From assembly GCA_016792805.1 (NCBI GenBank), contig JAEUHX010000042.1:132046-196045 (forward strand): 64,000 nucleotides of DNA, read 5' to 3'. Of this stretch, positions 10,079-64,000 are shown in pieces. Made by a program: the position numbers and the translations under genes. Within the stretch, counting starts at the first letter, position 1; the number at the start of each line of letters is the position of its first letter. The stretch comes from Planctomycetota bacterium (GTDB lineage Bacteria > Planctomycetota > UBA1135 > JACQFD01). The notes below the pieces were generated by a model. The model was not told the origin of the DNA. It saw nothing but the letters and a program-made list of their open reading frames with translations, and ran no database searches.

Positions 10079-11229
10079 ATCAATCCACCACCACCTCTGC
10101 CCATGACCGGTCCATTGCGGCCCAGTCGGCCTGGCTCCTGCTCGGCTGCTGCCTCGGCCTGCTCGCTGTTGGAGTAATGACGGCGGCCTCGGTGGCGCCC
10201 CCCGGGGAGTTCGCGTCCAAGATGAAATCCCATGGCGCGAGCGTTGCGGTGGCGATGCTCGGATTCTTGGTGGCGCTGAAGACGCCGATCTCGCTCTGGC
10301 GACGGGCGGCGCCCTGGATTCTCGGTGCGGTGCTCGTCGCGCTCGCCGTGGTACTGGTGCCCGGGGTCGGACAGAAAGTGAAGGGTGGACGTCGGTGGCT
10401 TGAGCTGCTCGGCCAACGATTCCAGCCGAGCGAGTTTGCAAAAGTAGCGCTGATACTTTTTCTCGCGGACTTCATTGGGAAGGCACCCGAACGGCTCACC
10501 GATTTGTGGAGAGGTTACTGCTGTGCGGCAGGAGTCGTGCTTCTCACTGCGGGAGCCGTTTTTTTTGAGCCCGACCTTGGCACGACGCTCTATCTCGTCG
10601 CCATCGGCGGCGTGATGCTGGCCGTCGGCACGGCTCCGACGATGTATCTGATCGGCAGCGGCGTCGTAGCGATCCCGCTCGTGCTTGGGCTCGGCTATTT
10701 GAGGTATGATCACGCAAAGACCCGCAGTACGAATGACTACCAAGTCGTGCAGAGCCTGCGCGCGCTGGGAGAGGGAGGCCCCTTTGGTGTCGGGTACGGC
10801 GCGGGGCGCATGAAGCTCGGCCACGTTCCCGAGGGTCACAACGACTTTATCCTCGCGGCTGTAGGCGAAGAGTGGGGCCTGATCGGGACGACAGTCGTTT
10901 TATTACTTTTCGCGGGAATTGTCGTTGCGGGCGCCCGCGCTGTCTCGGCGGTGCGCGATCCGTTCGCGCGCCTCATCGTCTTCGCGGTTCCCTTCGCCAT
11001 CGTCTTTCAGGCCGCGGTCAATCTTTTTGTGGTGACCGGCCTCGTCTATCCGAAAGGTATCGCACTGCCATTTGTTTCCTCTGGCGGCTCGTGCCTACTC
11101 GCCTTCAGCGTCGCCGTCGGCCTCGCGGCCAACGTGCTGCGTGAACAAGCCCAGCGAAGCGCAGACGAGCGCTCGACGTTCGCCTCGCTCCTCTCGGCGT
11201 CGAGCGACCCGCAGGCTTCGCCCGCGTGA
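10075..11229 (+). CDS. ftsW: SEDS-family peptidoglycan glycosyltransferase FtsW
   Basis: The true start is ATG 10075 (ATGA overlap with mraY). The 9412-10074 part of the track ORF merely overlaps mraY. SEDS motifs: RWLELLGQRFQPSEFAK, EPDLGT, HNDFILAAVGEEWG, PFVSSGGS. Confidence 0.88.
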   Translation: MNQSTTTSAHDRSIAAQSAWLLLGCCLGLLAVGVMTAASVAPPGEFASKMKSHGASVAVAMLGFLVALKTPISLWRRAAPWILGAVLVALAVVLVPGVGQKVKGGRRWLELLGQRFQPSEFAKVALILFLADFIGKAPERLTDLWRGYCCAAGVVLLTAGAVFFEPDLGTTLYLVAIGGVMLAVGTAPTMYLIGSGVVAIPLVLGLGYLRYDHAKTRSTNDYQVVQSLRALGEGGPFGVGYGAGRMKLGHVPEGHNDFILAAVGEEWGLIGTTVVLLLFAGIVVAGARAVSAVRDPFARLIVFAVPFAIVFQAAVNLFVVTGLVYPKGIALPFVSSGGSCLLAFSVAVGLAANVLREQAQRSADERSTFASLLSASSDPQASPA

Positions 11230-13054: not shown

Positions 13055-14595
13055 CACCTTTCGACCCTGCGCCCCCCGGCTCGGCTTGCGCCCCTGCGGG
13101 CGCCTTCCCGCATCCACTCGAATCGGATCCCATCGGGATCGCGAGCATCCTCGCAACGACGCGAAGAGTGCATTTCATCGGAATCGGCGGAAGCGGCATG
13201 TCCGGGCTCGCCCGCGTGCTGAAGCGCCGTGGCTTTCAGGTCTCCGGCTCCGATGGAAAGGCCTCGCCGACGACCGCGCAGTTGGAGCGCGAAGGGGTTC
13301 GCATCACCATCGGGCACGATCCATCCGCGATCGATTTCGGCGACGGATTTGTGGTTCTCTCCGCGGCCGTGCCAGCGGAGAACCCTGAAGTAGCGGCCGC
13401 TGCCGCAAGGCGCCTCCCGATGGCAAAGTATGCAGCGGCTCTCGGCGGCGCGGTGGCGACTCGCCGAGTCGTGGCCATTGCGGGTTGCCATGGAAAGACG
13501 ACGACGACCGCGCTCACGACCTTTCTGCTCCGCCGCGCTGGGATCGATTGCGGATTTGTGATCGGGGGCCGCGTGCCGCAGCTCGACGGCAGCGCGGGCG
13601 AGGGCCGCGCCCGAGAGTTCGTCGTGGAAGCGTGTGAGTTTGACCGCTCGTTTCTTCACTTTTCCGCGGCTGCGGCGGCCATCACAAACCTCGACGCCGA
13701 TCACCTCGATTATTACGGAACGTTCGACGCGGTCGCCGATGCGTTCGCACAATTCGTTCTGCGGATGCGATCGGAGGGCATGCTCGTCACGACTCCGGAG
13801 GCGTGGAAGGTGCTCGCGCCGCGGCTCGAGGCGACTCCCGATTGGGCGGCGAAGCGCGTGCGTGTGCGCACCGTTGGGATCGGCGCAGCGGCGGACGACC
13901 GCATCGTGCCCGTGCGCGTCGATCCCGACCGGAACGACGGCACGCGCTCGGCGATGCGAATTGTTGCAGGCCACCACGACCTCGGTCTCTTCCATCTGCG
14001 CTTGGCGGGTAGTCATAATTTGTCGAACGCGGCAATGGCCGTCCTTCTGGCGCTTGAGATGGGGGCCGATCTGGAGGCGGTGCGGCGGGCGCTGGCCGAC
14101 TTCCATGGCGTTGACCGCCGCCTTACGGTGCACCACGCATCGCCGGATCTCACGGTGGTCGACGACTACGGCCATCACCCGGCGGAGATTCGGGCGACGC
14201 TCGCAGCGGCGCGTGAACAATTCTTGGCTTCGAGCGGCGACGACGGACGTGACGCCAGCCGTCGCCTGGTGCTAGTATTCCAGCCCCACCAATATTCGCG
14301 GACTCGGCTGCTTTTTGCGGACTTCGTCGAGGCGCTGCAGGGAGCCGATCGGGTGATCCTGCCGGAGATCTATGCGGCTCGCGACAACGACGAGGATCGA
14401 AAAGCGGTGTCGAGCGCCCATCTCGCTGAGGCCCTTCGAGCCAAGGGTGTCGATGCGGAATTCGCGCCGACGCTCGATGTGGCCGCGGAGCTGGCATGGA
14501 CCGGGCGCCGTCCGGGAGATGTGATCCTCACTTCTGGCGCAGGCGATGTCGATCGGGTGGCCGATGAGCTGGTTCGACGAGCCTCGGCTCGGTAG
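13051..14595 (+). CDS. murC: UDP-N-acetylmuramate--L-alanine ligase
   Basis: ATG 13051 overlaps the murG stop (ATGA). VHFIGIGGSGMSGLARVLKRRGFQVSGSD, IAGCHGKTTTTAL and DDYGHHPAEI are present. The 12397-13050 part of the track ORF is an artefact that overlaps murG. Confidence 0.92.
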   Translation: MTPFDPAPPGSACAPAGAFPHPLESDPIGIASILATTRRVHFIGIGGSGMSGLARVLKRRGFQVSGSDGKASPTTAQLEREGVRITIGHDPSAIDFGDGFVVLSAAVPAENPEVAAAAARRLPMAKYAAALGGAVATRRVVAIAGCHGKTTTTALTTFLLRRAGIDCGFVIGGRVPQLDGSAGEGRAREFVVEACEFDRSFLHFSAAAAAITNLDADHLDYYGTFDAVADAFAQFVLRMRSEGMLVTTPEAWKVLAPRLEATPDWAAKRVRVRTVGIGAAADDRIVPVRVDPDRNDGTRSAMRIVAGHHDLGLFHLRLAGSHNLSNAAMAVLLALEMGADLEAVRRALADFHGVDRRLTVHHASPDLTVVDDYGHHPAEIRATLAAAREQFLASSGDDGRDASRRLVLVFQPHQYSRTRLLFADFVEALQGADRVILPEIYAARDNDEDRKAVSSAHLAEALRAKGVDAEFAPTLDVAAELAWTGRRPGDVILTSGAGDVDRVADELVRRASAR

Positions 14596-16182: not shown

Positions 16183-18315
16183 CTATTTCCCTCCGCCGGT
16201 GACCGGGCCGCCCGTCGGAGTAGGCGGAGGCGCTGGTTTCTTGGGATCGGGCTCGGTTTTCTTCGGCGGTTTCGGCGGCCGCGCCTTCGGCGGCAGCGTC
16301 TTCGGGTTGCCTTGAGGCTGGGGCGGGGGAGGAGGCGGATCGAAGGGGATCACCTCCGTTGCTTCGGCGTCGCCGATCACAATTTCTTCCTCCGGCGTAT
16401 GCACGAGAGGGCGGAATCGGGCGCCGAGATTCTGCTGTGGAAATACACAAATGGCCGCCGACCACCACGACGCGTCGGGCTCCCACTCCTCGAATGCGAT
16501 CATCTCCTCGCCGTCGGTTCGCCGAAGGATGCCCTGGCGCGGCATCCGCACGTCTCCGAATTGGCTGCGGCCAGTAACAAATCCAGTCGGAGATCCCCAG
16601 CCCATCGCCGACGCCCGCCTCGGATCGAACGCAATTTTCCAGGGCTCTTCGGGAAGCTCTCTCTCCGTGAGCAGCGCGACGGAGCAGCCGCGGCCGGGCA
16701 CGTGCTCGACGACCGTGCCGTCCTCGGCAGTCCTCGTGATGAGCACGCCGCTGCCGCGCTTGATCGAGAATGCACTAAAACCGCCGGAAAGGAAGAAATC
16801 CTTCGGGCGCTCGAGCTGGCTGCGGCGCACCGCCGAGAGCGATCCGCTCCCGTCGAGCTCGATCCGTGCGAAGACCACCGCGGAGCGCAGATCGTCGGCG
16901 AGCCGGTAGAAGACGAGCATCACCGGTGCGAGGTCGCTCTCGCGACGCAACAAAAGCGCGTCGCTCCCACGTCGCGTCGGAGCGGGTGCCGGCTCGGCGC
17001 CCCGCGGACTCTTCGAGCGTGCCCGCGCGAATCCGCCGGGGCCGCGATAGAAGGCAAAGGGTCGATCGCTCAGATAATTGCCAGTGGCGCGCCCGAGCAC
17101 CCAACGAAGGGCGAGGCGCCCTGACGATTCAAACGTCGAGGCCGCAGCTTCGCCCTCCTCGGCGCGCTCGTCGGTTCCGGGAAGCACCCAGGCCTCGTAG
17201 CGCTGCCCAGTGTCCGGCGCTTCCAAGCGCCCGACGAACATCGCTCCGATCGCGCCGCGCGGCGACACCTTCGGCTTCGCAGGCTCCGGCGCATTCTTCG
17301 CGCCGCTCTCTCCGGTCTTCACGCCGTTCAAGGCTGCGAAAAGCTCGTACGCATATCCGACCACTTCCCCCTGGGAGGGCGATTCCCGCGGAGGCAGCGC
17401 GCGCCAGCGCCTCTCGGCGCGCAGCCCTGCCAAGACCTCCTCGGCGATGAGGTCGTGAATCCCACTTTTCCATTCCGACGCAGCGTTGAGAATGAGCTCC
17501 GGCGGAAATAGTAAAGGATCACCCGAGACGGGCCCGCGCGACATGAGTAAACTCTGCGCCAGGCTTTCGACGTGGAAGGCGAGCCGGAAGCGGATGTGCT
17601 CGCGCCGCTCGCCGTCGAGCCACTCGCCCCAGACAGGGGCCGGTTCGCCGGTCGCGAATCGCGCCGAACCGATGATCGGCGGGCCGTCGTCCTCGGTGCG
17701 CACGTCGACTGCGAGCAGACCCCAATTATCGCGGCGCGAGCCTTGGCGGAGTGTTCGTACTTTTCGTTCGGGAATGCTCCAGTCGATCAGGGTGCCTCGG
17801 ACGTTGTGCCGCAGGGATTCACCGTTGGATCCCGGGCGCCAGACGGGAAGCCAGCTAGGCCCCGAAGAAGTAGCAACCCACAAAACGGAGAAGGCGTTGC
17901 TTTCCAGCGGGAGATCGCAGGCGAACTCCGGGCCGTCGGCCTTCACTCCAAAAGCGTTGTTGCGCGCGTCGAACCGCAGCGCCACCGGTTCCACGCTTTT
18001 CGGCTGCCGCGTCGCGCCGTCCAGCACCACGCGGTAAGCCGCCGTCGTGGCGCCGCTGCGCGTGTCGTGGGCGATCACGATCTGCTCCGGGCGCCCCGAC
18101 TCGCCTCGAACGGCGTGGACCAGCAGGAAGTCGCGCTGGTTCGCTGGCTGCCCGAGTGGTCCCCGCTCCACGAGGTAGCCGAATGCTTCGCCCGGCCGCC
18201 ACCCCTGGGGTGAGGCTTTGCGGGCGTACGCCGCCCCGGGGAGGAGCGCTGCGGTCAACGGCGCCAGCGCCGCGGCGAGCGCGGCAGCCAGTAGTCGTCC
18301 CGCAGGGTAGTGCAT
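16183..18315 (-). CDS. large secreted hypothetical protein with Pro/Lys-rich C-terminus
   Basis: ATG 18315 gives the signal peptide MHYPAGRLLAAALAAALAPLTAALLPGAAYA. It reads as 711 aa with good GC3 bias. The C-terminus is PPPPPPQPQGNPKTLPPKARPPKPPKKTEPDPKKPAPPPTP. No family recognised. Confidence 0.65.
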   Translation of the reverse strand: MHYPAGRLLAAALAAALAPLTAALLPGAAYARKASPQGWRPGEAFGYLVERGPLGQPANQRDFLLVHAVRGESGRPEQIVIAHDTRSGATTAAYRVVLDGATRQPKSVEPVALRFDARNNAFGVKADGPEFACDLPLESNAFSVLWVATSSGPSWLPVWRPGSNGESLRHNVRGTLIDWSIPERKVRTLRQGSRRDNWGLLAVDVRTEDDGPPIIGSARFATGEPAPVWGEWLDGERREHIRFRLAFHVESLAQSLLMSRGPVSGDPLLFPPELILNAASEWKSGIHDLIAEEVLAGLRAERRWRALPPRESPSQGEVVGYAYELFAALNGVKTGESGAKNAPEPAKPKVSPRGAIGAMFVGRLEAPDTGQRYEAWVLPGTDERAEEGEAAASTFESSGRLALRWVLGRATGNYLSDRPFAFYRGPGGFARARSKSPRGAEPAPAPTRRGSDALLLRRESDLAPVMLVFYRLADDLRSAVVFARIELDGSGSLSAVRRSQLERPKDFFLSGGFSAFSIKRGSGVLITRTAEDGTVVEHVPGRGCSVALLTERELPEEPWKIAFDPRRASAMGWGSPTGFVTGRSQFGDVRMPRQGILRRTDGEEMIAFEEWEPDASWWSAAICVFPQQNLGARFRPLVHTPEEEIVIGDAEATEVIPFDPPPPPPQPQGNPKTLPPKARPPKPPKKTEPDPKKPAPPPTPTGGPVTGGGK

Positions 18316-18523: not shown

Positions 18524-20074
18524 ATGGATCGTCCCCCGATGATGCTCCTCGCCCCTGCCCTGTTGGCGGCAGCGAGTCTTCTATCTCCGTTGGTTCCCGC
18601 CCAGGACCGGTTCGCCGCCATTGCAGACGGCGCCTCGGTCGTGCCGCCCACCGCGAGCCCTGCCACGGCGGAGATCGATTTCAGTCTCGATCCTGCGACG
18701 CAGCAGGCCTTCTACCGAATTGTGCACAATGTGCCTGGCGCCATCGGCGCCGAGGTGCGCCAGGCGTTTCCCGGCGCCAATGGCCCCGTCGCCATCGCAC
18801 TTGCTCCCGCCGGGCCCTTCGAATTTCGCGGCGTGACGCCGCCGATGAGCCCGGCCGACCGGCTGTTACTCTTTCAGGGCGGCTTTTATGTGAATATTCG
18901 GTCCGCAGCGGCTCCCGCGGGCGAGATCCGCGGCCAACTCGCGAAATATGTACATCGCGATTTCGCCTGCGATCTAAATCAAGCCAACGTCGTTCCTCCG
19001 TCGGGGAGCCCTGCCACCGGGGTTGCGCATTTCACTCTCCACGAACCCGAGAACCGGCTCACCTATCAAGTGCAGGTGTCCGGCCTCCTCTCTCCGCCGA
19101 CCGGCGCGCAGCTGCGCTTCGCGCCTCCGGGGGCCAACGGCCCCGTGGTGGTCGATCTCGGCGCGCCGCTCCCGGCCACGGCCGCCTGGGCCGGGTACAG
19201 TCCGGCCCTCACGCCGCCTCAGGTCGCAGCTCTCAAGGCCGGAAACTTTTATGTGAGTGTGGATTCGATCCTCTCGCCAGCGGGCGCGGTGCGCGGTCAG
19301 TTGACCGGCGCCAAGCAGTCGTTCTCGCTGCGAGCCAACGGCAGCCAGGTGGTGCCGCCGAACCTGAGCCCGAACCAGGGCAGAGGCGGTCTCATCTTCG
19401 ATCCCGCCACGGCGGAACTCGCCTACTCGATCGATTGGAACGGCATCAACGGGACGGGGGCCATCTTACAGATCGGCTACCCGGGTCAGCCCGGCGGCGT
19501 CCTGCTGCCTCTGGCAGGCCCGCCCAACGGCCCGTGGATCGGCAGCACCCCGCCGCTGGCCACGGCGACCGTCGATTTATTGTATCGCCAAGGCCTCAAT
19601 ATCGAGATCTTGAGCATGGCGGTCCCAACCGGCGAGCTTCGCGGTTCGGTCAGGTTGAATCATGATCATTACGGATACTCCGGAGCGACTCTTCCGGCGC
19701 CGATGGCCGGCGACCGGCGCCTCAAGATCTCGAGCGAAGGTATTCCTTCCCTCGGCGCCCCGTTCACGGTGGAGCTCTACGGGGGCATGCCCGGTGCTGC
19801 GGCGACTCTTGCTTATTGTGAGGACCTCATCGGCACTCCCCTCGACCTGCTCCCTTTCGGAGTGCCGAGCCATGTGCTTTGGGGGAACGCGCTCGGCGGC
19901 TATCCCGCGCCGCCTGTGAATCTCCACGGCGCCACGGAATTGAATTTCACCCTGCCCGTGATGGCCGCGCTGATCGGACAGGACTTCTACCTCCAGTGGT
20001 TCTCCGTGGAGCCTGGAGCGAACCCCTTGGGCCTTGTGACGAGTGATGCCATTGAGGTGGTCCTCGTCCCGTAG
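18524..20074 (+). CDS. secreted protein with three CHRD domains and a family-specific C-terminal domain
   Basis: Signal peptide MDRPPMMLLAPALLAAASLLSPLVPAQD. Three roughly 110-aa repeats end in FYVNIRSAAAPAGEIRGQL, FYVSVDSILSPAGAVRGQL and LNIEILSMAVPTGELRGSV (CHRD signature). The C-terminal ~140 aa is shared with the two FG-GAP proteins. Confidence 0.8.
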   Translation: MDRPPMMLLAPALLAAASLLSPLVPAQDRFAAIADGASVVPPTASPATAEIDFSLDPATQQAFYRIVHNVPGAIGAEVRQAFPGANGPVAIALAPAGPFEFRGVTPPMSPADRLLLFQGGFYVNIRSAAAPAGEIRGQLAKYVHRDFACDLNQANVVPPSGSPATGVAHFTLHEPENRLTYQVQVSGLLSPPTGAQLRFAPPGANGPVVVDLGAPLPATAAWAGYSPALTPPQVAALKAGNFYVSVDSILSPAGAVRGQLTGAKQSFSLRANGSQVVPPNLSPNQGRGGLIFDPATAELAYSIDWNGINGTGAILQIGYPGQPGGVLLPLAGPPNGPWIGSTPPLATATVDLLYRQGLNIEILSMAVPTGELRGSVRLNHDHYGYSGATLPAPMAGDRRLKISSEGIPSLGAPFTVELYGGMPGAAATLAYCEDLIGTPLDLLPFGVPSHVLWGNALGGYPAPPVNLHGATELNFTLPVMAALIGQDFYLQWFSVEPGANPLGLVTSDAIEVVLVP

Positions 20075-56688: not shown

Positions 56689-58029
56689 TCATGCCCCGTC
56701 GCTCTGCTTCGCTGATCCGAGGATCGACCCGAGCCGTCGCTGCACGGCAGGCGCATTGAGCCCCGCGGCGAAGGAGACGACGAGAGCGCCCGCCTCCGAG
56801 AGGAGCAGCGCGCGGTCGAATTGAACGAGCCACAGTCCGGTCAGGACCGCCGAAGTGAACAAAACGCCGAGGACGGCCCCGATGATCGCATTGTGGATTC
56901 GCTCCCGTGTTGCGCGGGGCGGCTTCTTGGTGGTGCGCCGCAGCGCACCGCCGAGAAGCCCTCCGGCGATCGTAAAGGCCGACAACAGCTTGGGCCACAG
57001 AAGCGAGATGGTGAGCTTCGGGGCGACGAGACCGCCGGCCTCCGCCCAGAGCTGTACATCGCCGACTCCGAGCGAGCGAAAGATGGTGTCGTTCGCCGAC
57101 TCGCCCTTGGAAATCGTCAGGACGGCTGGGAATTCGCCGCGCTCGCCGTGGAGCGAAACGTTGAGATCTTCGGGGACAGGTGCCGCGCTCCCGTCGGCGT
57201 TGCGCAAGGAAACGGTGATCTCGGTGCTCTCGAGGCCGAGCCCATAGATGGAAGATTGGCGCGAGGTGAGGGAGAGGGTTCGGCCGCCGTCGCCCGCGAG
57301 AAGGTCGATCTGTTGTTTCCCGAGAGTGCTCTCCGCCTCGACGGCCACGTCGCCAGCCGAGGTCCGGCGCGCGACGCGCACCGAAACGGATCCGTCGAGC
57401 CCGAGCTTCTTCAGGCTGACTGTCGTCGGCTCGACCTCTCCGCCGTTGCCGCGTACGAAGAAGGCCACGGGAAGCGCCCTCGGGAGCGCCTCATCGACGC
57501 CGGAGGTCGGCTTCAGCCAAATGCGGAGATCGGTAACAAAACGCTTCTCGCCGCCGGACCACGGAAGCGGATCATTTTGTAATCTCATGCAAAGCATCGC
57601 CGAGACGACCTCTCCGGCGCTCGCGGCGTTCGTCGGAACGAACACAAGATTCGCCGCGGCGGCGGTCGTGCGGTCGCCGAGTTCCAGCCCGGACGGGGTG
57701 TCGCCCTTGGCGCGAACGACGGCGAGGTCGCCGCGCCCGAGCTTCAGCTCGCGCACTGCGCCGAGCGGAGTGGCCTTGTTGGAAGCCGGGCCGCGGGAAC
57801 GCTCCACCACAATCTCGAGGTCTTCCGCCTCTCGCGCGCTGAGCGTCATCGGCAGGATCGCTTCGTCGGCGGTCGCCTTCATCGAGCTCAACGAGAAGGT
57901 GTTCTTCAGGCGATCCGCGAGGTCGACTCGAAGCCCGGTGGGAGGCTTGGGCTTCTGCTGCGCGGCGGCGCTTCCCATGACCACAACGAGGCAGAACGTA
58001 CTCCGGATCCAGCGCATCATGAGGGGCAT
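56689..58029 (-). CDS. secreted/membrane protein with beta-sandwich repeats and C-terminal TM helices
   Basis: Signal peptide MPLMMRWIRSTFCLVVVMGSAAAQQ. Ig-like repeats follow (EITVSLRNADGSAAPVPEDLNVSL). The C-terminus has about 3 TM helices (LLSAFTIAGGLLGGAL, AIIGAVLGVLFTSAVLTGLWLV, AGALVVSFAAGL). Confidence 0.6.
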   Translation of the reverse strand: MPLMMRWIRSTFCLVVVMGSAAAQQKPKPPTGLRVDLADRLKNTFSLSSMKATADEAILPMTLSAREAEDLEIVVERSRGPASNKATPLGAVRELKLGRGDLAVVRAKGDTPSGLELGDRTTAAAANLVFVPTNAASAGEVVSAMLCMRLQNDPLPWSGGEKRFVTDLRIWLKPTSGVDEALPRALPVAFFVRGNGGEVEPTTVSLKKLGLDGSVSVRVARRTSAGDVAVEAESTLGKQQIDLLAGDGGRTLSLTSRQSSIYGLGLESTEITVSLRNADGSAAPVPEDLNVSLHGERGEFPAVLTISKGESANDTIFRSLGVGDVQLWAEAGGLVAPKLTISLLWPKLLSAFTIAGGLLGGALRRTTKKPPRATRERIHNAIIGAVLGVLFTSAVLTGLWLVQFDRALLLSEAGALVVSFAAGLNAPAVQRRLGSILGSAKQSDGA

Positions 58030-58223
58030 CGTGCCACAGAACGCCGGCCTCGCTGACCATCGAACCGATGGGGCGAGCGATCTCCCTCGAACTCTGTGGG
58101 GCGATGGGGGAGACGGCGGCGTTGGAGCTTCTCAGCATGCTCTGGCCGCGGCAGCAGTTCTGCGAGCTACGCGCTGGGGCCTCACGCCCGTTCGGCGGAG
58201 CATTCGGGAAACCACCTTTCGGT

Positions 58224-58436
58224 TCAGCCGTTCGAATTCCTCGCCGTCGCAGGGATCGTCGGCGGCGTCGGGCGCGATTGTGCGCCGGATGCGCTGGGCT
58301 CCGGCACTGGGGCTGGAGCGGCAAACGTGCGCGCCGGAGTGCGCGGGCCGCCGTAGCCAGTTGATTCGCAGCTCGTCAGGAGAAGCGGAAGCACAAGGAG
58401 TGCGCAGAGCGCCACGGAGGAGCGTCGAAGTTGCAT
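58224..58436 (-). CDS. small lipoprotein
   Basis: ATG 58436 gives MQLRRSSVALCALLVLPLLLTSC (lipobox), followed by a Pro-rich 45-aa tail. Confidence 0.5.
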   Translation of the reverse strand: MQLRRSSVALCALLVLPLLLTSCESTGYGGPRTPARTFAAPAPVPEPSASGAQSRPTPPTIPATARNSNG

Positions 58437-58489
58437 AGTCGTTTTTGTTGGGTTGCGGCCATGGGCCTGCGGCACAGGCCCCGGAACTG

Positions 58490-59410
58490 CTACTTATGCG
58501 AAGATTTTTCCCGCCCAAGGTGATGAACGGGGGACATGAGGAGATCGGCGCTGAGGTCGCGCACGATCTGTTCAATTGCCGTGTCGCACGTCTCAGCGAG
58601 CGCGTCGACGAGGCGGTCGGCACAGCCGGCTGCGCCGTCCGGTTCCACGGCGGACATCTCCGCCAGGAGCTGATCGGTGCCCGTGCGCTTCAGCGCGAAA
58701 ACGCGGTTCGTGGCGCCGCCGTCCTCATCGAGAAGGAGGGAGCGCAGTGCGCCGTCCAGCTCCTTCGCCTGGCGCTGGGCCACTAGCGGATCGGCGGAGA
58801 TTTGATACAGAAGATGGATGAGTAATAGTAACACCTGGGAGTTCCGCGCGATCCGCGCGCCGCGGGCCGGGCGCAGATCGAGGCAGTCGGGGTGGGGTTG
58901 CGGCACGAGAGCCGCGCCGATTCCCATGGACCCGCGCGTCGGGTCGGCAGGGAGCCCATACCACGCATGGAGTTCCGCGCAGAGCGATTCGGGTTGGCGC
59001 AGCTGCGTCCAGGCGTCGGAGAGAGCTTCGCGGCGAAGGGCCATTTCGCGGTAGCTCCGGCCGTCGATCCACACCGCCGAGGCGCGCTCGCGCGCATGGG
59101 CGTCGAGCCAAAGCGTGAGCGGCATCAGCTCCTTCAGGATCTGTATGGCCTTCGGCATGTCGTCGGCGAAACGACGCAACAGATCGCGCCGCTCGTCGAA
59201 CATGCGCACTGCAATCTCATCGCGCAGCTGGATCGATTCGTTCCACTCGTCGAGCTTCTTCCAGGCGAGCGTGGCGAGAGCCGAGAGGACAGTCAATAAA
59301 AGCGCGATGGCGGAGGCGAGGAGATTTTCCTGCACGCTGCGCCCACGCGACATGCGCACGAGCTCGACGACGGTCCCGGCGCCGGACGGGGGATGAGGTT
59401 CCGAGCTCAT
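58490..59410 (-). CDS. single-pass membrane protein, all-helical, unknown function
   Basis: The ATG 59410 start overlaps the stop of the upstream peptidase gene (ATGA). TM helix LLASAIALLLTVLSALATLAW. No family recognised. Confidence 0.6.
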   Translation of the reverse strand: MSSEPHPPSGAGTVVELVRMSRGRSVQENLLASAIALLLTVLSALATLAWKKLDEWNESIQLRDEIAVRMFDERRDLLRRFADDMPKAIQILKELMPLTLWLDAHARERASAVWIDGRSYREMALRREALSDAWTQLRQPESLCAELHAWYGLPADPTRGSMGIGAALVPQPHPDCLDLRPARGARIARNSQVLLLLIHLLYQISADPLVAQRQAKELDGALRSLLLDEDGGATNRVFALKRTGTDQLLAEMSAVEPDGAAGCADRLVDALAETCDTAIEQIVRDLSADLLMSPVHHLGREKSSHK

Positions 59411-60582
59411 CGGATGGCTCCGAGATCGATGCCGAACACCTTTCGCGAACGCTTTTTGTTGATCGTGGGCTTTTCGGATTTTGTGGGTTTCTCGGGTTTT
59501 GCAGGCTTTGCTTGCGCGACGGCCGGCGCCGTCGGCGGCACCAGGATGGTGCGCGCCAGCTCCTTCGAAACCAGGAACCGACCTTTCGCTTTCAGCTCCT
59601 CACCGCTCAGCGTACGGTTGCCACGGCCGGGGAAGGGATCCCACAAATCGACCGAGTGGATTCCGTAGTCGCCGTCGCCGGTGACGCCATCGACGCCTCG
59701 AACCGCGCCGTCGATACCGCCCGGTTCGCCGCCGCTCAGAAATCCCGTGATGTCGCGGGCGGTTTCCAGGGTGGCATTCCGGCGCACTCGGGAATAAGTG
59801 GCGCCAATCACGACGCAGGCGTGGCCGCCGCCCTCCTCCTCGAGTCCGACGAGCACCGGGTGACCCGCCGAGAGATCGGCCAGCATCCGATCTGTGGTCA
59901 TGTCGGCGAAGGTTACACCCACGTTCATCAGCGAATTCTTGAAGGTCGTCTTCTCGAGCTCGGGGTTGATGGCGCGGAGGATCGTTGTGAGATCGGCGGT
60001 TTGGTCCTCTTTTGTCCCGCGGAAGTAGCGGGCGAGCTCCGCCTGCTCGGCCTCCGTCGTGGCGGTGCGCGACCGCAGCAGCCGAAGTCCATAGTAGCGG
60101 TCGACGATTTGTGCACACGCAGCCCAGCACCACTGCAGATTCGCCTGCTCCGCGAGAAGCTTACGAATGGCCGTCAGCCGTACTGTGAATACTCCGGGCG
60201 ACGCCGTCGTGAGCGCGGCGCGCGGGGCGCTCACCGGTAGCGGTGCGGCAGCAAGGTTCAGCTCCTCGCCCTTCGCGGGCACCACCACCACCGGCATCAA
60301 CGTGATCCGCACCACCGGTGGCGCTTCGTCGCCGACCAGGCTCGCGAGTCCAGCCACTTCGCGTGTGTGCTCCTTCGGCGCCACATTCACGCGCACGCCG
60401 CCGGGCCCAAGGCCCACCTGCCCTTCGACTCCGGCCTTCTTGAGGATTTGTTGCGGCTCCTTTGGGATCACATCTGTGGGATCCAGAAATGGAGGCAGAG
60501 ACGGAGAGCTGATTTGCGCCAAGCTGGCCGGCACCAAGCCGACAGCAACGCCAAGACATACGATCGTTCGGGGGAACCACAT
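59407..60582 (-). CDS. secreted clan-CA papain-like cysteine peptidase (C39/C70-like)
   Basis: ATG 60582 gives signal peptide MWFPRTIVCLGVAVGLVPASLAQ. A Gln sits 6 residues before the Cys in EQANLQWCWAACAQIVDRYYG. The candidate His is GGGHACVVIGATY and the candidate Asp is SVDLWDP. The C-terminus has a basic KP-repeat tail (AKPAKPEKPTKSEKPT). The 60583-61218 part of the track ORF has no support. Confidence 0.65.
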   Translation of the reverse strand: MWFPRTIVCLGVAVGLVPASLAQISSPSLPPFLDPTDVIPKEPQQILKKAGVEGQVGLGPGGVRVNVAPKEHTREVAGLASLVGDEAPPVVRITLMPVVVVPAKGEELNLAAAPLPVSAPRAALTTASPGVFTVRLTAIRKLLAEQANLQWCWAACAQIVDRYYGLRLLRSRTATTEAEQAELARYFRGTKEDQTADLTTILRAINPELEKTTFKNSLMNVGVTFADMTTDRMLADLSAGHPVLVGLEEEGGGHACVVIGATYSRVRRNATLETARDITGFLSGGEPGGIDGAVRGVDGVTGDGDYGIHSVDLWDPFPGRGNRTLSGEELKAKGRFLVSKELARTILVPPTAPAVAQAKPAKPEKPTKSEKPTINKKRSRKVFGIDLGAIR

Positions 60583-60801
60583 GAGAAGGCTCGCTAGAGG
60601 GGACCTAGTCCGCAGCGGGCCGCGCGCAGGAACCGAACATCGGCGTCCTGACGGGCACGGATCGCGGTTCAGGGTCAGCGTGCTAGCATCCCGCGGTCCG
60701 TCGTGGAGCCTGCGACGGGAAGTTGGAAGCGAGATGACCGAGACTGCCGCAAGCCTCGAACCGACGCGCCGACCGAATCGGCGGCGGGGAGTTTCGTACC
60801 G

Positions 60802-63800
60802 ATGACCGGCAAAATTGTGACTTTCTACTCCTACAAGGGAGGCTCGGGGCGCACGTTCTTGCTGGCGAACGTCGGCTGGTGGCTCGCAATGCAGGGATTT
60901 CGGGTCCTCTGCGTCGACTGGGATCTCGAAGCGCCGGGGCTCGCGCGCTATTTCCCGGAGGAATGGGGAGGCCGGCGGAAGTCGGGACTCGTCGACCTTC
61001 TCAAGGCAGCTCACGAGAACCAACCGATCGCTTGGAAACAGGAGGTTCGTCCGATCAAGGTCGCGGATCGACAGGAGCTCGCGCTTCTCGACGCCGGAGG
61101 GCATTCGGGGGCCGACTACGCCAGGGCGCTGGCAGAGCTCCCCTGGTCGGAGATGGGGCGTGGAACTCCGGGCGCGTTTCGTGACCGACTCCAGGCAATG
61201 GTCAATGAGTGGCGCCAAGAGTATGATTTCGTGCTGGTGGATAGCCGCACCGGGTTCACCGATTGCGGAACGGTATGCACTTCACAAATCCCCGACGTGC
61301 TAGTGCTGGTGATCGCGCCGAACACTCAGGGGCTCGAGGGTGGTCTCGAGGTCGTGGAGCGAGTCCGCCGTCATCGACATGCGGAGAAGGCAGACGCAGC
61401 CCCGCTGAAGATCGTGCCAGTGCCTTCGCGCTGGGACAACAATTCGCCGGAGGATCCCAAGAAGTGGCTGGAGTTGTTCGAGGCGCGGCTGGATCCGGTC
61501 TACAGGGAGTGGTGCGACAAGGATACGGATGTCGGCAAGCTTCTGACACTGCTTCGAATTCCTTACATCTCGCGTTGGAGCTTCGGCGAGCCGCTGCCAG
61601 TTCGGGATGAGCCGGGAAACGACTCCGCATCCATCTCCTACGCCATGATTACTGTGGCGTCGCTTCTTGCGCGCGATTTTCAAAATACGGCGCAGCTGAC
61701 CGCGGAGCGAGAGAGCTATGTGCGAGAAGTGATCGAGAAGGGGCGGGGAGTCCTCGCTTCCGCGGAGGCTACGCCACAATTTCGTTTTGACCTCTTCCTC
61801 TCCTTCTCATCGCCCCAGCGTGATCTTGCTCGAGCCGTCGCCGCAGAGCTGAAGCTGCGTGGGAGAAATGTATTCTTCGACGAGCGAAGCCTCGTGGCGG
61901 GAAGCCCGTGGCCCGATGGGCTTGCCCAAGGCGTTCGTGAGGCTCGGGGAGTGGTGGCGCTGCTGGGCACCAGGATTTCAACGTGGCAGCGCGCGGAAGT
62001 GGAAGCGTTCATCGAGAAGGCCAATGAAGACAGTACTCGATTTGTGATTCCGGTTTGGCTGGAAGCGCTGCCGGATTGGCCTGAATTAGTATTTCAAGGA
62101 TTCGCCGGGAGGGGACAGAGTCCCGCAGAGCTTGCATCCAGTATCCATAATAAGCTTGAGCTGAGAGAGAGGCCGGAGCCTCCTGTCGCGGCTACCCCGG
62201 CGGTGCCCAGCTGGACTCCCGAATCGGCCCTCGAGAGCTATCGCGCCTGGGTGCAGGAGCAGCACGCGCGGCTGGTGCCGTATTTCGACGGGGCGTCCCA
62301 GAAGATGCTTGAGAACGTATGTATTGCTTTGGAATTCGAGCCGACGGTCGGCAAGCGCGAGGAGATGCTCGACCCGCAGGCGGCGGAGACGGCGCGAGCC
62401 AGCAACGGCAAGCCGGGGGCGCTCCAGGATTTATTGCTCTCCTCGGCGCAGCGGCGCTGGGTCATCGTCGGAGAGCCGGGAGCGGGAAAGACCACCACAC
62501 TTCGCGCGCTCGCAGTTTCCTTGGCGAAGGCGCAAGTGTGGATTCCCATCTTTCTTCCGCTGGCGCGCTTGGCGAAGCCGCCTCTCGATCCCATCGGCTT
62601 CGCGCTCCACGACATGCTGGGAGAGGAGCAGCACTCGGCACGGGGGCGCGCTCTGCGGGAGGCGCTCCTCGATGCGCAGCGTGGCGGGCGTCTTGTGATC
62701 CTGCTAGATGGTCTCGATGAATATCGGGGCGACGACATCGACAAGCTGCTGGAGGCGCTCGTGAGCTACGCGAGCGCGCCGGAGCGGTCGGCGCTCCCGA
62801 TCGCGCTCACCTCGCGACATGTGGCTTTTGAGCGACGGGAGACCCCTGCGGGTTTCCGCCGTGCCAAGGTGCTGGCGCTCAACGAGGAGCAACAGAAAAA
62901 CCTCGCCTCCAAGTTCCTCGGCCCCAGAGAAGCGGAGCGCATGCGGCGCCATCTGCAGGCGCGCCCGGCGCTCGCGGAGCTGGCCCGAAGCCCGCTCCTC
63001 CTCACGCTGCTCTGCGTGGTTGCTCGCGATACGTTGCTTTCCGAGTCGGCGCTGCCTGCTACGCGCGGCAAGCTTTACAAAACGGTCATCGACCTCCTTC
63101 TGCGGCGCGGCTTCGGTGTGGAGAAACGCGGAGTTGCAGACACCGTGCCCGCTCGAACGTTGCTGCAGAGACTGAGCTTCCGCCTCCACGATCTTGGCGG
63201 CGAGAGCTGGGAGTTCGAGGAGCTGTCGAGAGTGCTCGGCGAGCTTCGACAGGGAGACCCCAAAGTGAACTTTCTTGTGAAGGAAACCAAAGAGTGGGGA
63301 TCGAACGACGCGTTCCTGAAGGACATCGGCTACCACGCGGGCGTCCTTGGCCCCCACGACAGCGAGCATCTCCCTTGGCGCTATCTTCACCGATCGTTGC
63401 GCGAGTTTCTCGCCGCGGAAGAGCTTGCCACGCGCCCTCAAGAAGAGGTTCGCAAGCACCTGGCGGGATGGGTTGCAGAAGAGGCAGGCGCGAAGTCTCA
63501 GAAAGACACCAAGCGCTCCGACGCCAAGAGGCCCAAGCCCGAGCGTTGGGGAGAAGTGTATGCTCTCTTATGCGGGCTCGTCGACAACCCAACGACGATG
63601 GTAAAGGCCCTTCAGGAAGCGAGCCCCGAGATCTTCCTCCGATCGCTTCCGTCCATCGATGCGTTGGAGCCGCAAGCGGCCCTCGATCTGTTGCTGCCGC
63701 TCGATGGCTGGGACGCTGACGCGCTGCGCTTGCTCCTCGCTGCCTGGGCGCTGCCGGATCGAAAGGCCGTCGAGCTGCTGCAATTCCAGGTGAAGCCAGG

Positions 63801-64000
63801 CCGCTCGACCCACTCCCTCGGCGTTCTGTGGCATAGCCTGGAGTGTCTTGGGGCGCCGCCAGTGCGGGAGGAGTTCTTCCGACGCTGCGAGAGGCCGCTA
63901 GCGCCCAAGGATCTGTTGGGATGGGTCGAGATTCCTGCCGGAGAGTTCCAAATGGGCTCACCGAAGAGAGAGACTGGACGCTATAGGGACGAGGGGCCCC
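60802..64000 (+). CDS. NLR-type multidomain protein: ParA-like (KGGSGR) ATPase - TIR - NACHT NTPase - FGE-sulfatase domain (3' end beyond window)
   Basis: Not in the supplied track because no stop is reached. I read 1,066 uninterrupted codons from ATG 60802. Domain strings: MTGKIVTFYSYKGGSGRTFLLAN...DFVLVDSRTG (ParA/MinD-like); FDLFLSFSSPQRDLARAVAAELKLRGRNVFFDERSLVAGSPW...ISTWQRAEVEAF (TIR, 61780-62166); VIVGEPGAGKTTTL (62461-62502) and LVILLDGLDE (62692-62721) (NACHT); WVEIPAGEFQMGSPKRETGRYRDEGP (63922-end, FGE-sulfatase N-terminus). Confidence 0.85.
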   Translation, partial: MTGKIVTFYSYKGGSGRTFLLANVGWWLAMQGFRVLCVDWDLEAPGLARYFPEEWGGRRKSGLVDLLKAAHENQPIAWKQEVRPIKVADRQELALLDAGGHSGADYARALAELPWSEMGRGTPGAFRDRLQAMVNEWRQEYDFVLVDSRTGFTDCGTVCTSQIPDVLVLVIAPNTQGLEGGLEVVERVRRHRHAEKADAAPLKIVPVPSRWDNNSPEDPKKWLELFEARLDPVYREWCDKDTDVGKLLTLLRIPYISRWSFGEPLPVRDEPGNDSASISYAMITVASLLARDFQNTAQLTAERESYVREVIEKGRGVLASAEATPQFRFDLFLSFSSPQRDLARAVAAELKLRGRNVFFDERSLVAGSPWPDGLAQGVREARGVVALLGTRISTWQRAEVEAFIEKANEDSTRFVIPVWLEALPDWPELVFQGFAGRGQSPAELASSIHNKLELRERPEPPVAATPAVPSWTPESALESYRAWVQEQHARLVPYFDGASQKMLENVCIALEFEPTVGKREEMLDPQAAETARASNGKPGALQDLLLSSAQRRWVIVGEPGAGKTTTLRALAVSLAKAQVWIPIFLPLARLAKPPLDPIGFALHDMLGEEQHSARGRALREALLDAQRGGRLVILLDGLDEYRGDDIDKLLEALVSYASAPERSALPIALTSRHVAFERRETPAGFRRAKVLALNEEQQKNLASKFLGPREAERMRRHLQARPALAELARSPLLLTLLCVVARDTLLSESALPATRGKLYKTVIDLLLRRGFGVEKRGVADTVPARTLLQRLSFRLHDLGGESWEFEELSRVLGELRQGDPKVNFLVKETKEWGSNDAFLKDIGYHAGVLGPHDSEHLPWRYLHRSLREFLAAEELATRPQEEVRKHLAGWVAEEAGAKSQKDTKRSDAKRPKPERWGEVYALLCGLVDNPTTMVKALQEASPEIFLRSLPSIDALEPQAALDLLLPLDGWDADALRLLLAAWALPDRKAVELLQFQVKPGRSTHSLGVLWHSLECLGAPPVREEFFRRCERPLAPKDLLGWVEIPAGEFQMGSPKRETGRYRDEGP

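Follow-up and report, generated by a model that had tools for sequence, protein, structure and literature searches.

A class of predicted bacterial immune sensors joins a TIR effector, a NACHT NTPase and a C-terminal FGE-sulfatase (FGS) domain of the C-type-lectin fold in one polypeptide. These TIR-NACHT-FGS proteins of the 'antigen receptor-type', which are diversified by a diversity-generating retroelement (DGR) located in cis or elsewhere in the genome, have been described by Kaur et al. (2020, 2021), in the preprint of Kibby et al. (2022) and by Dore et al. (2024; clade 5D targets). Targets in trans are documented for the class, one template can serve several paralogous targets, and the description of the class rests on computation. 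Here we report a gene of this kind at the end of a 64,000-nucleotide stretch of DNA (the window) from a Planctomycetota bacterium (assembly GCA_016792805.1, contig JAEUHX010000042.1, positions 132,046 to 196,045 of the forward strand). It begins at position 60802 on the plus strand, runs past the window end and is a genuine, window-truncated bacterial NLR-like gene with the predicted function of an immune sensor. Like the described class, it encodes a TIR effector, a NACHT and a single C-terminal FGS domain with a variable region (VR) at the 3' end of the gene, and its orthologues lie beside HRDC-bAvd-reverse transcriptase cassettes with adenine-specific repeat pairs. It differs in carrying an extra domain of about 300 residues before the TIR, a KGGxGR variant of the MinD/ParA fold; the main texts of the NACHT-FGS papers, as searched, mention no such module on NACHT proteins. 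A second difference is that neither a DGR nor a partner TIR is linked to the gene in the window lineage. The distinctive features are thus the KGGxGR domain fused before TIR-NACHT-FGS and the loss of both the partner TIR and the cis DGR. The gene would not greatly surprise a specialist.

Frame 1 of the plus strand is free of stops from the ATG at 60802 to the window end at 64000. Retranslation gave 1,066 sense codons, the same count as in an earlier note made from the letters alone, and the closest in-frame stop 5' of the ATG lies at 60649. The open reading frame (ORF) is missing from the program-made ORF list solely because it runs past the window end. Its product begins MTGKIVTFYSYKGG, in agreement with the N-termini of homologues. 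The complete protein (P0001) is GenBank MBL8694257.1, 1,284 residues from a Planctomycetes metagenome-assembled genome (MAG), and it is 100% identical to the window translation. The complete gene is also present in the Logan contig L001 (7254-11108; end equivalent to window position 64656), which matches the window base for base over 10,452 shared bases and reaches 10 kb past the gene. Together, the two records supply the C-terminus that the window edge cuts off. The identical 1,284-residue protein occurs on three independent Logan contigs from several samples. Every motif listed in the earlier note was found where it had been placed: YKGGSGRT at residues 11-18, DFVLVDSRTG at 142-151, FDLFLSFS at 329-336, NVFFDERSL at 356-364, STWQRAEVEAF at 393-403, GEPGAGKT at 557-564 and LVILLDGLDE at 631-640. 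The start of the FGE-sulfatase domain falls at 63919-63922. A chance ORF or a pseudogene was ruled out because the identical protein is public and present on three contigs, and because purifying selection acts on every domain. The gene is overlapped by many long antisense ORFs (e.g. 63086-63961, minus strand, 291 residues); these are spurious and expected at 63-65% GC.

Domains were called by profile search against the curated cutoffs of Pfam and NCBIfam, and the four modules proposed earlier (ParA-like, TIR, NACHT and FGE-sulfatase) were all retrieved above these thresholds. The TIR domain occupies 61780-62166 (residues 327-455). TIR_2 spans residues 332-428 with 64 bits against a cutoff of 28, and the best PDB match is the Acinetobacter NADase AbTIR (7uwg/8g83, E 6e-6). 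Residue E399 (61996-61998), in W-Q-R-A-E, aligned with the Glu of W-T-N-Y-E, the NADase motif of AbTIR, and is the Glu that had been singled out as a candidate from the letters. In AbTIR, the aligned Glu is the catalytic residue. At the level of sequence, the domain is therefore a TIR fold with a conserved candidate catalytic glutamate, as a NADase would have. The NACHT module follows at 62455-62919 (residues 552-706; PF05729, 41 bits against a cutoff of 26.7), and it contains both a Walker A of the form GxxGxGK[ST] (GEPGAGKT, 62470-62493) and a Walker B of the form hhhhDGhDE (LVILLDGLDE, 62692-62721). The helical region between NACHT and sensor (62920-63918, residues 707-1039) had no Pfam family match; it is conserved in the orthologues, with a ratio of nonsynonymous to synonymous rates (omega) of 0.12, and presumably forms the winged-helix and helical arm of the STAND module. 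In the full protein, the FGE-sulfatase domain at residues 1040-1279 completes a tripartite STAND layout with the TIR at 332-428 and the NACHT at 552-706. The earlier note read the protein as a conflict sensor of the NLR type in which FGS senses the ligand, and this agrees with the published computational classifications.

The same tripartite logic of effector, STAND NTPase and sensor is found in the experimentally characterised anti-phage STAND proteins (bNACHT and Avs) and in plant TIR-NLRs. Oligomerisation activates the TIR effector of plant TNLs and of some bNACHT proteins, which then cleaves NAD+. The sensor in those proteins consists of LRR, TPR or short C-terminal domains, whereas here it is a single hypervariable lectin-fold domain. 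The NCBIfam equivalogs EruA (37 bits, cutoff 1000) and HyoA (16 bits, cutoff 1200) scored far below their cutoffs, and the protein belongs to neither named family.

The first 27 residues of the FGS sensor lie within the window (63919-64000, plus strand) and the rest lies past it. In the full-length protein, PF03781 spans residues 1040-1279 with 172 bits. The domain matches the DGR variable protein TvpA of Treponema (2y3c, E 5.5e-14), and it also matches structures of PvdO and of FGE. GenBank names the protein "SUMF1/EgtB/PvdO family nonheme iron enzyme", and the strong PF03781 match and the PvdO and FGE structures speak for such a nonheme iron or formylglycine-generating enzyme. Comparison with human FGE (1y1e) speaks against it: the catalytic Cys336 falls in a 3-residue gap, Cys341 is aligned to Ala, and the loop that should carry them is the hypervariable VR. 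Moreover, the non-enzymatic TvpA is matched equally well, and the domain accounts for only 19% of a TIR-NACHT protein. Given the absence of the C336/C341 catalytic cysteine pair, we rejected the FGE/SUMF1 identity and regard an enzyme of this family as extremely unlikely; the GenBank name misleads for this protein and its relatives. The VR covers residues 1236-1275 (L001 10959-11078, window-equivalent 64507-64626, plus strand). It stops 9 codons before the stop codon. A C-terminal lectin/FGE-sulfatase fold with a VR at the extreme 3' end is the arrangement of a DGR target, and the domain is, as read from these features, a DGR-type variable lectin.

Relatives outside the window lineage link this architecture to DGRs. 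We examined six distant proteins of the same architecture, 35-48% identical to P0001 (loci L004, L005, L006, L008, L010 and L011). In 5/6 of these loci, DGR genes lie within about 3 kb (HRDC, bAvd and reverse transcriptase (RT), not always in the same combination). In these same five, a template repeat near the DGR genes is the counterpart of the final ~130 nt of the four-domain gene, and the mismatches between the two repeats fell at template adenines in 13/14, 18/19, 11/12, 17/18 and 16/17 cases. Differences between template and VR that lie almost exclusively at template adenines are the diagnostic sequence signature of a DGR. Locus L008 holds a multi-target array, with one template at 16705-16834 and VRs at 11058-11187, 14355-14469, 17288-17402 (minus strand) and 19049-19066 (minus strand); at least three or four separate TIR/NACHT/FGS genes have VRs that match this one template.

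All six distant loci also carry a stand-alone TIR gene of about 200 codons, the stop of which overlaps the ATG of the large gene by 4 bp (L004 7378-8004; L005 7387-8004; L006 7417-8004; L008 6717-7343; L010 160-780; L011 7426-8004). The three small TIRs that were translated keep the Glu of S-x-x-C-x-x-E. The 4-bp overlap suggests that the small TIR is translationally coupled to the large gene. By analogy, the small TIR of these relatives is probably recruited through TIR-TIR contacts, and it would correspond to the homotypic adaptor pairs that Kaur et al. (2021) describe in STAND-FGS systems; its role may be that of a recruited effector or of a regulator. In the two Myxococcota loci, L006 (6828-7373, minus strand) and L011 (6838-7383, minus strand), an extra divergent ThsB-type TIR gene (PF08937) lies directly upstream of the pair of small TIR and four-domain genes, giving three TIR domains within about 5 kb.

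The gene of the window lineage itself carries a DGR-type sequence signature. A syntenic orthologue with 88% identity (P0002, locus L007) is present in a related genome, in which the order of the locus is the same. Between P0001 and P0002, omega was 0.12-0.20 in every domain (TIR 0.12, NACHT 0.20), with a gene-wide synonymous distance (dS) of 0.46. The frame is intact in both lineages, and the frameshifts or stops that would mark a pseudogene are absent. The 40 VR codons behaved in the opposite way, with 53% amino acid identity, a nonsynonymous distance (dN) of 0.44, a dS of 0.14 and an omega of 3.2. Nonsynonymous and synonymous differences numbered 29 and 4 in the VR vs. 182 and 326 in the rest of the gene (Fisher p = 3e-9). 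The VR differences lie at codon positions 1-2 of about 14 scattered codons, and the blocks between the variable codons (CGTGGCGGCTCCTTC, GCGCGCTCGGCGTACCGGGGC and TTCCGCCCCGCCAGGCTGGCTCCTCACTCC) are identical even synonymously. With the L004 template as a foreign proxy, the P0001 VR mismatched at 16/22 adenines and 16/92 other positions (p = 1e-6), and the P0002 VR at 18/22 adenines and 12/92 other positions with the same proxy (p = 1e-9). At the 3' boundary of the VR, GGCTTCCGCCCCGCCAG, which resembles an initiation of mutagenic homing (IMH) site and has a putative homing role, is shared without change by the P0001 VR and by both repeats (VR and template) of L004 and L008. From the differences between P0001 and P0002 we infer that, since the split, DGR homing has taken place in one or both lineages, from a template elsewhere in the genome. 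The predicted template should keep CGTGGCGGCTCCTTC ... GCGCGCTCGGCGTACCGGGGC ... TTCCGCCCCGCCAG and have adenines where P0001 and P0002 differ, in codons of the kind AAC, ACC and AGG.

Synonymous divergence between P0001 and P0002 is uneven along the gene: dS was 0.67-0.70 in the ATPase and FGS segments, about 0.30 in TIR and NACHT, and 0.23-0.26 in the flanking genes. The G+C content at third codon positions (GC3) of the TIR segment is unusually low, at 0.58. The uneven dS and the low GC3 of the TIR may reflect a mosaic origin or recombination with paralogues.

The N-terminal domain occupies 60802-61701 (plus strand, residues 1-300). NCBIfam NF047398 (KGGVGR-motif variant AAA ATPase) matched residues 4-188 with 143.4 bits against a cutoff of 90, Pfam AAA_31 and CbiA also exceeded their own cutoffs, and PADLOC PDC-M28B matched with 88 bits. 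An AlphaFold (AF2) model of residues 1-470 had a pLDDT of 88 and a pTM of 0.74. When the modelled first ~300 residues were compared by Foldseek with Soj (1wcv), MinD (1g3q), ParA (8ray) and FlhG, the target TM-scores were 0.75-0.79, and the module models as a complete Soj/MinD fold. These results bear out the earlier reading of a ParA-type P-loop with Arg in place of Lys. The deviant Walker A, YKGGSGRT (60832-60855), retains the signature Lys (K12) and has Arg (R17) for the P-loop Lys. A Switch I-like VDWDLEAPG (60913-60939; D39 and D41) aligns to the D-x-D motif of MinD and ParF, and a Walker B/Switch II-like DFVLVDSRTG (61225-61254; D147 and R149) aligns to MinD YDYILVDSPAG. Across 71 family members, K12, G13, G14, G16 and R17 are invariant. 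D39, D41, A44, P45, G46 and the stretch D147-S-R-T-G151 are likewise invariant in the family alignment, so that Switch II contributes an additional invariant Arg (R149). KGGxGR[ST] was found in 117/119 unbiased family representatives, with Arg at position 17. The canonical P-loop Lys of xKGGxxK[ST] is thus absent, and at this position the module departs from what a working MinD/ParA-type ATPase would have; the signature Lys, the Switch I Asp pair, the Walker B Asp and the overall fold are retained. In MinD and ParA, the signature Lys reaches across the sandwich dimer. On the model, the retained signature residues predict a nucleotide-sandwich dimer, and the invariant motif pattern points to a ligand pocket that has been conserved, not to one that has decayed. 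Besides the Arg substitution, the module differs from MinD, Soj and ParA in having D-S-R-T-G for D-S-P-A-G, in its low identity to them (16-19%), in having no MinE, ParB or MinC partner, and in being fused to immune domains.

We determined how widespread the module is by an exhaustive phmmer search with residues 1-300 alone. It returned 8,766 representatives at E <= 1e-3, of which 5,890 reached E <= 1e-10 and 1,320 reached E <= 1e-30. The 150 best matches are proteins of 320-2,146 residues, and in nearly all of them the module begins no later than about residue 40. TIR_2 was the commonest partner, present in 40/76 (53%) randomly sampled family representatives; TPR, HEAT and WD40 were far rarer, and NACHT and FGE-sulfatase fell outside the top 25 partner families of the 76 sampled members. 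The KGGxGR-TIR combination is therefore a widespread cassette, of which the four-domain protein is an uncommon extension. The earlier note knew of no characterised architecture with a ParA-like ATPase before the TIR. The module itself is no novelty, being a named NCBIfam domain with more than 1,300 clusters and TIR as its commonest partner. The KGGVGR family (NF047398) includes the KGGVGR-TIR-NB-ARC-TPR proteins of actinobacterial FxSxx-COOH peptide systems and PADLOC PDC-M28B. The sensor protein shares with it the motifs K-G-G-x-G-R-[ST], D-x-D and D-S-R-T-G, the N-terminal position and the direct TIR fusion. Most family members continue into TPR, HEAT, WD40 or NB-ARC or end after the TIR, whereas a NACHT-FGS continuation is rare. 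Experimental work on the KGGVGR module was not found in the literature searched (KGGVGR, FxSxx-COOH, and ParA-like with TIR and defence).

The role of this domain can be read in more than one way. It may itself be an effector or a decoy, either an inactive MinD/ParA-like protein that disturbs division or segregation or a non-catalytic receptor for nucleic acid or membrane. Kaur et al. (2020) placed the MinD/ParA-like domain of these conflict systems among the cell-division-related effectors and predicted it to be inactive. The extreme N-terminal position is that of NLR effectors, and the module also occurs without a TIR, fused to TPR, HEAT, WD40, sigma-54 AAA and cyclase modules. On the other hand, the signature Lys, the substituted Arg, the Switch I Asps and the Walker B Asp are invariant in very diverse members, which points to a ligand pocket, and TIR is by far the commonest partner. 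We consider the effector or decoy role unlikely. A different and more specific proposal makes the domain a dedicated, hitherto unrecognised regulator of TIR enzymes: a MinD-fold switch in which R17 and R149 would bind nucleotide, or an ADP-ribose-type product derived from the TIR, and thereby drive or gate TIR pairing. This we offer as a speculative idea that is unlikely to be right.

Given these features, we propose that the gene encodes a single-chain, NLR-like intracellular conflict or immunity sensor. The variable lectin surface would bind an invader-derived ligand, and ligand binding would free the NACHT for nucleotide exchange and oligomerisation. The oligomers would bring the TIRs together, leading to NAD+ cleavage via E399 and then to growth arrest, abortive infection or a signal. 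The KGGxGR domain would be tied functionally to the TIR and not to the sensor, most likely as a nucleotide- or phospho-ligand-dependent clamp for dimerisation or licensing rather than a fast ATPase. The gene of the window lineage would be an orphan, having lost the coupled small TIR and lacking a cis DGR, and its diversification would depend, or would have depended in the past, on a template and RT elsewhere in the genome. We regard the overall scheme, including its mechanism, as reasonably probable, and hold the role given to the KGGxGR domain with much less confidence.

Several observations weigh against this proposal. First, tblastn, blastn and fuzzy VR-scaffold searches detected no RT, Avd, HRDC or template-like repeat in the 64-kb window, in the 10 kb downstream (L001) or in L007, and a DGR in cis was rejected on these negative searches. 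In addition, none of 10 Planctomycete RT candidates (profile search and accession check) fell in the MBL869xxxx series of the same MAG. The window also contains no small TIR gene by tblastn with three small TIRs, so that the system may work differently or less well here. Furthermore, the 90% cluster of P0001 has a single member although the gene is on three contigs from several samples, and the VR is identical in all sampled copies; there is therefore no sign of ongoing diversification in this lineage. Among published work, FGS is absent from the domain legend of the experimentally tested proteins in the bNACHT preprint of Kibby et al. (2022), and the prediction of an inactive MinD/ParA-like domain (Kaur et al., 2020) does not favour a nucleotide-dependent clamp. 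Finally, the flanks of the gene consist mostly of housekeeping genes and not of a rich defence island.

A strict two-anchor pattern for the cognate template gave 0 matches in the genome and metagenome collections; the VR of P0002 itself was not returned either, the source genomes being absent from the collections, and the result is uninformative. A relaxed pattern retrieved three microbial-mat contigs with templates 73% identical to the P0001 VR, which are hence non-cognate. A hairpin 3' of the VR was uninformative as a homing marker, as the confirmed DGR targets showed no consistent hairpin either. A 212-residue ORF at 60167-60805 (plus strand) was considered as a remnant of the small TIR. 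It was rejected despite its ATGA overlap with the large gene, because its product is of low complexity, rich in R, P, S and T, and has no tblastn match.

The missing parts raise the question of whether the gene, cut off from its DGR and from the partner TIR, is a nonfunctional remnant in decay and on its way to a pseudogene. Such a remnant would account for a locus with no small TIR, RT, Avd or template repeat and for the identical VR of all sampled copies. It fits poorly with a 1,284-codon frame that has stayed intact in two lineages at a dS of ~0.46 under purifying selection in each domain, and with the preservation of all catalytic and nucleotide-binding motifs. Moreover, the inferred rewriting of the VR since the split of P0001 and P0002 would have required a working DGR at that time. 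We consider decay very improbable.

A further alternative keeps the molecular logic of the immune-sensor scheme and changes its purpose. The protein may serve self/non-self recognition or regulated cell death and signalling in aggregates or biofilms (kin discrimination, developmental control) rather than anti-phage defence, with the lectin tuning a signalling input. In the literature, STAND and lectin proteins diversified by DGRs show an enrichment in bacteria that are multicellular or form aggregates, and they have been discussed as apoptosis-like or signalling systems. The metagenome templates that share the VR scaffold come from microbial-mat samples, and the position among housekeeping genes would also suit such a role. 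Other evidence favours defence. The adjoining gene matches the PADLOC single-gene defence candidate PDC-S01 with 269 bits, and the N-terminal module matches PDC-M28B. Like typical defence islands, the distant orthologous loci are dense in TIR, ThsB-like TIR, CHAT and paralogous TIR-NACHT-FGS genes, and the bacterial NACHT proteins tested experimentally protect against phage (literature). We think the non-defence purpose unlikely, though less so than the other alternatives considered here, and retain the immune-sensor scheme.

Upstream of the gene lies a divergent intergenic region of 218 bp (60584-60801), the site of the small TIR gene in the distant orthologues. A promoter and terminator scan of 60400-60900 gave nothing, including no sigma-70-like promoter, and the whole window yielded neither a tRNA gene nor, at gathering thresholds, an Rfam match. 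The divergent upstream gene (59407-60583, minus strand) encodes a signal-peptide-bearing, papain-like peptidase with a weak Peptidase_C70/C39_2-like match, and it is followed by two further minus-strand genes of the divergent operon without a Pfam match (58490-59410 and 56689-58029). The earlier note had entertained this operon as a possible partner. We rejected such a partnership: the operon codes for a secreted C70/C39-like peptidase and for proteins of no known function, has no PADLOC matches and, although conserved in the sister genome, is absent beside the gene in 6/6 distant orthologous loci. The sister locus (L007 5302-7639) has extra ApbE/DUF2271, PepSY_TM and 70-residue genes between the 446-residue and 305-residue genes, which are missing from the corresponding part of the window (~58030-58490). 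A vWA-MoxR/VMAP or iSTAND ternary system (Kaur et al., 2020) was also rejected, since no MoxR-like AAA+ ATPase or vWA component lies within 7 kb upstream or 10 kb downstream, nor within 10 kb on either side in L007.

Downstream, the convergent neighbour with the PDC-S01 match is an AAA_14 plus DUF4143 ATPase (L001 11280-12458, minus strand, window-equivalent 64828-66006), and past it lie polA, selA and other housekeeping genes. About 80 nt past the stop codon of the sensor gene, a GC-rich inverted repeat, CTCGCGGGCG ... CGCCCGCGAG, with a loop of 28-30 nt occurs in both genomes (L001 11190-11235, window-equivalent 64738-64783; L007 13934-13981). It may be a shared terminator or a regulatory element between the convergent genes. 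The bulk GC of the part of the gene within the window is 0.630 vs. 0.652 for the window. GC3 was 0.73 for the sensor gene and 0.70 for the PDC-S01-like gene, compared with 0.78-0.84 for the housekeeping neighbours. The lower-GC accessory block that had been suggested earlier thus stands for these two genes and not as a broad block; the low GC3 of the two genes, together with the synteny in the related genome, indicates an old two-gene islet.

It has been proposed that NACHT-FGS proteins are the bacterial counterparts of adaptive antigen receptors, and the gene described here is a compact example, with effector, switch and hypervariable sensor in a single polypeptide. P0001 and P0002 form a natural pair of alleles that differ almost only in the sensor tip and could be used to probe whether the VR sets ligand specificity. 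The gene is an entry point to two questions: do NLRs of the FGS type serve as adaptive sensors, and what do TIR enzymes gain from a MinD-like module with an Arg-substituted P-loop? Finding the ligand of the Arg-substituted P-loop would explain a module that recurs in more than 1,000 predicted conflict proteins. If the TIR-regulator idea is true, more than 1,000 KGGxGR-TIR proteins would share a new activation principle, and in this gene an adaptive NLR sensor diversified by a retroelement would be seen to act upstream of it.

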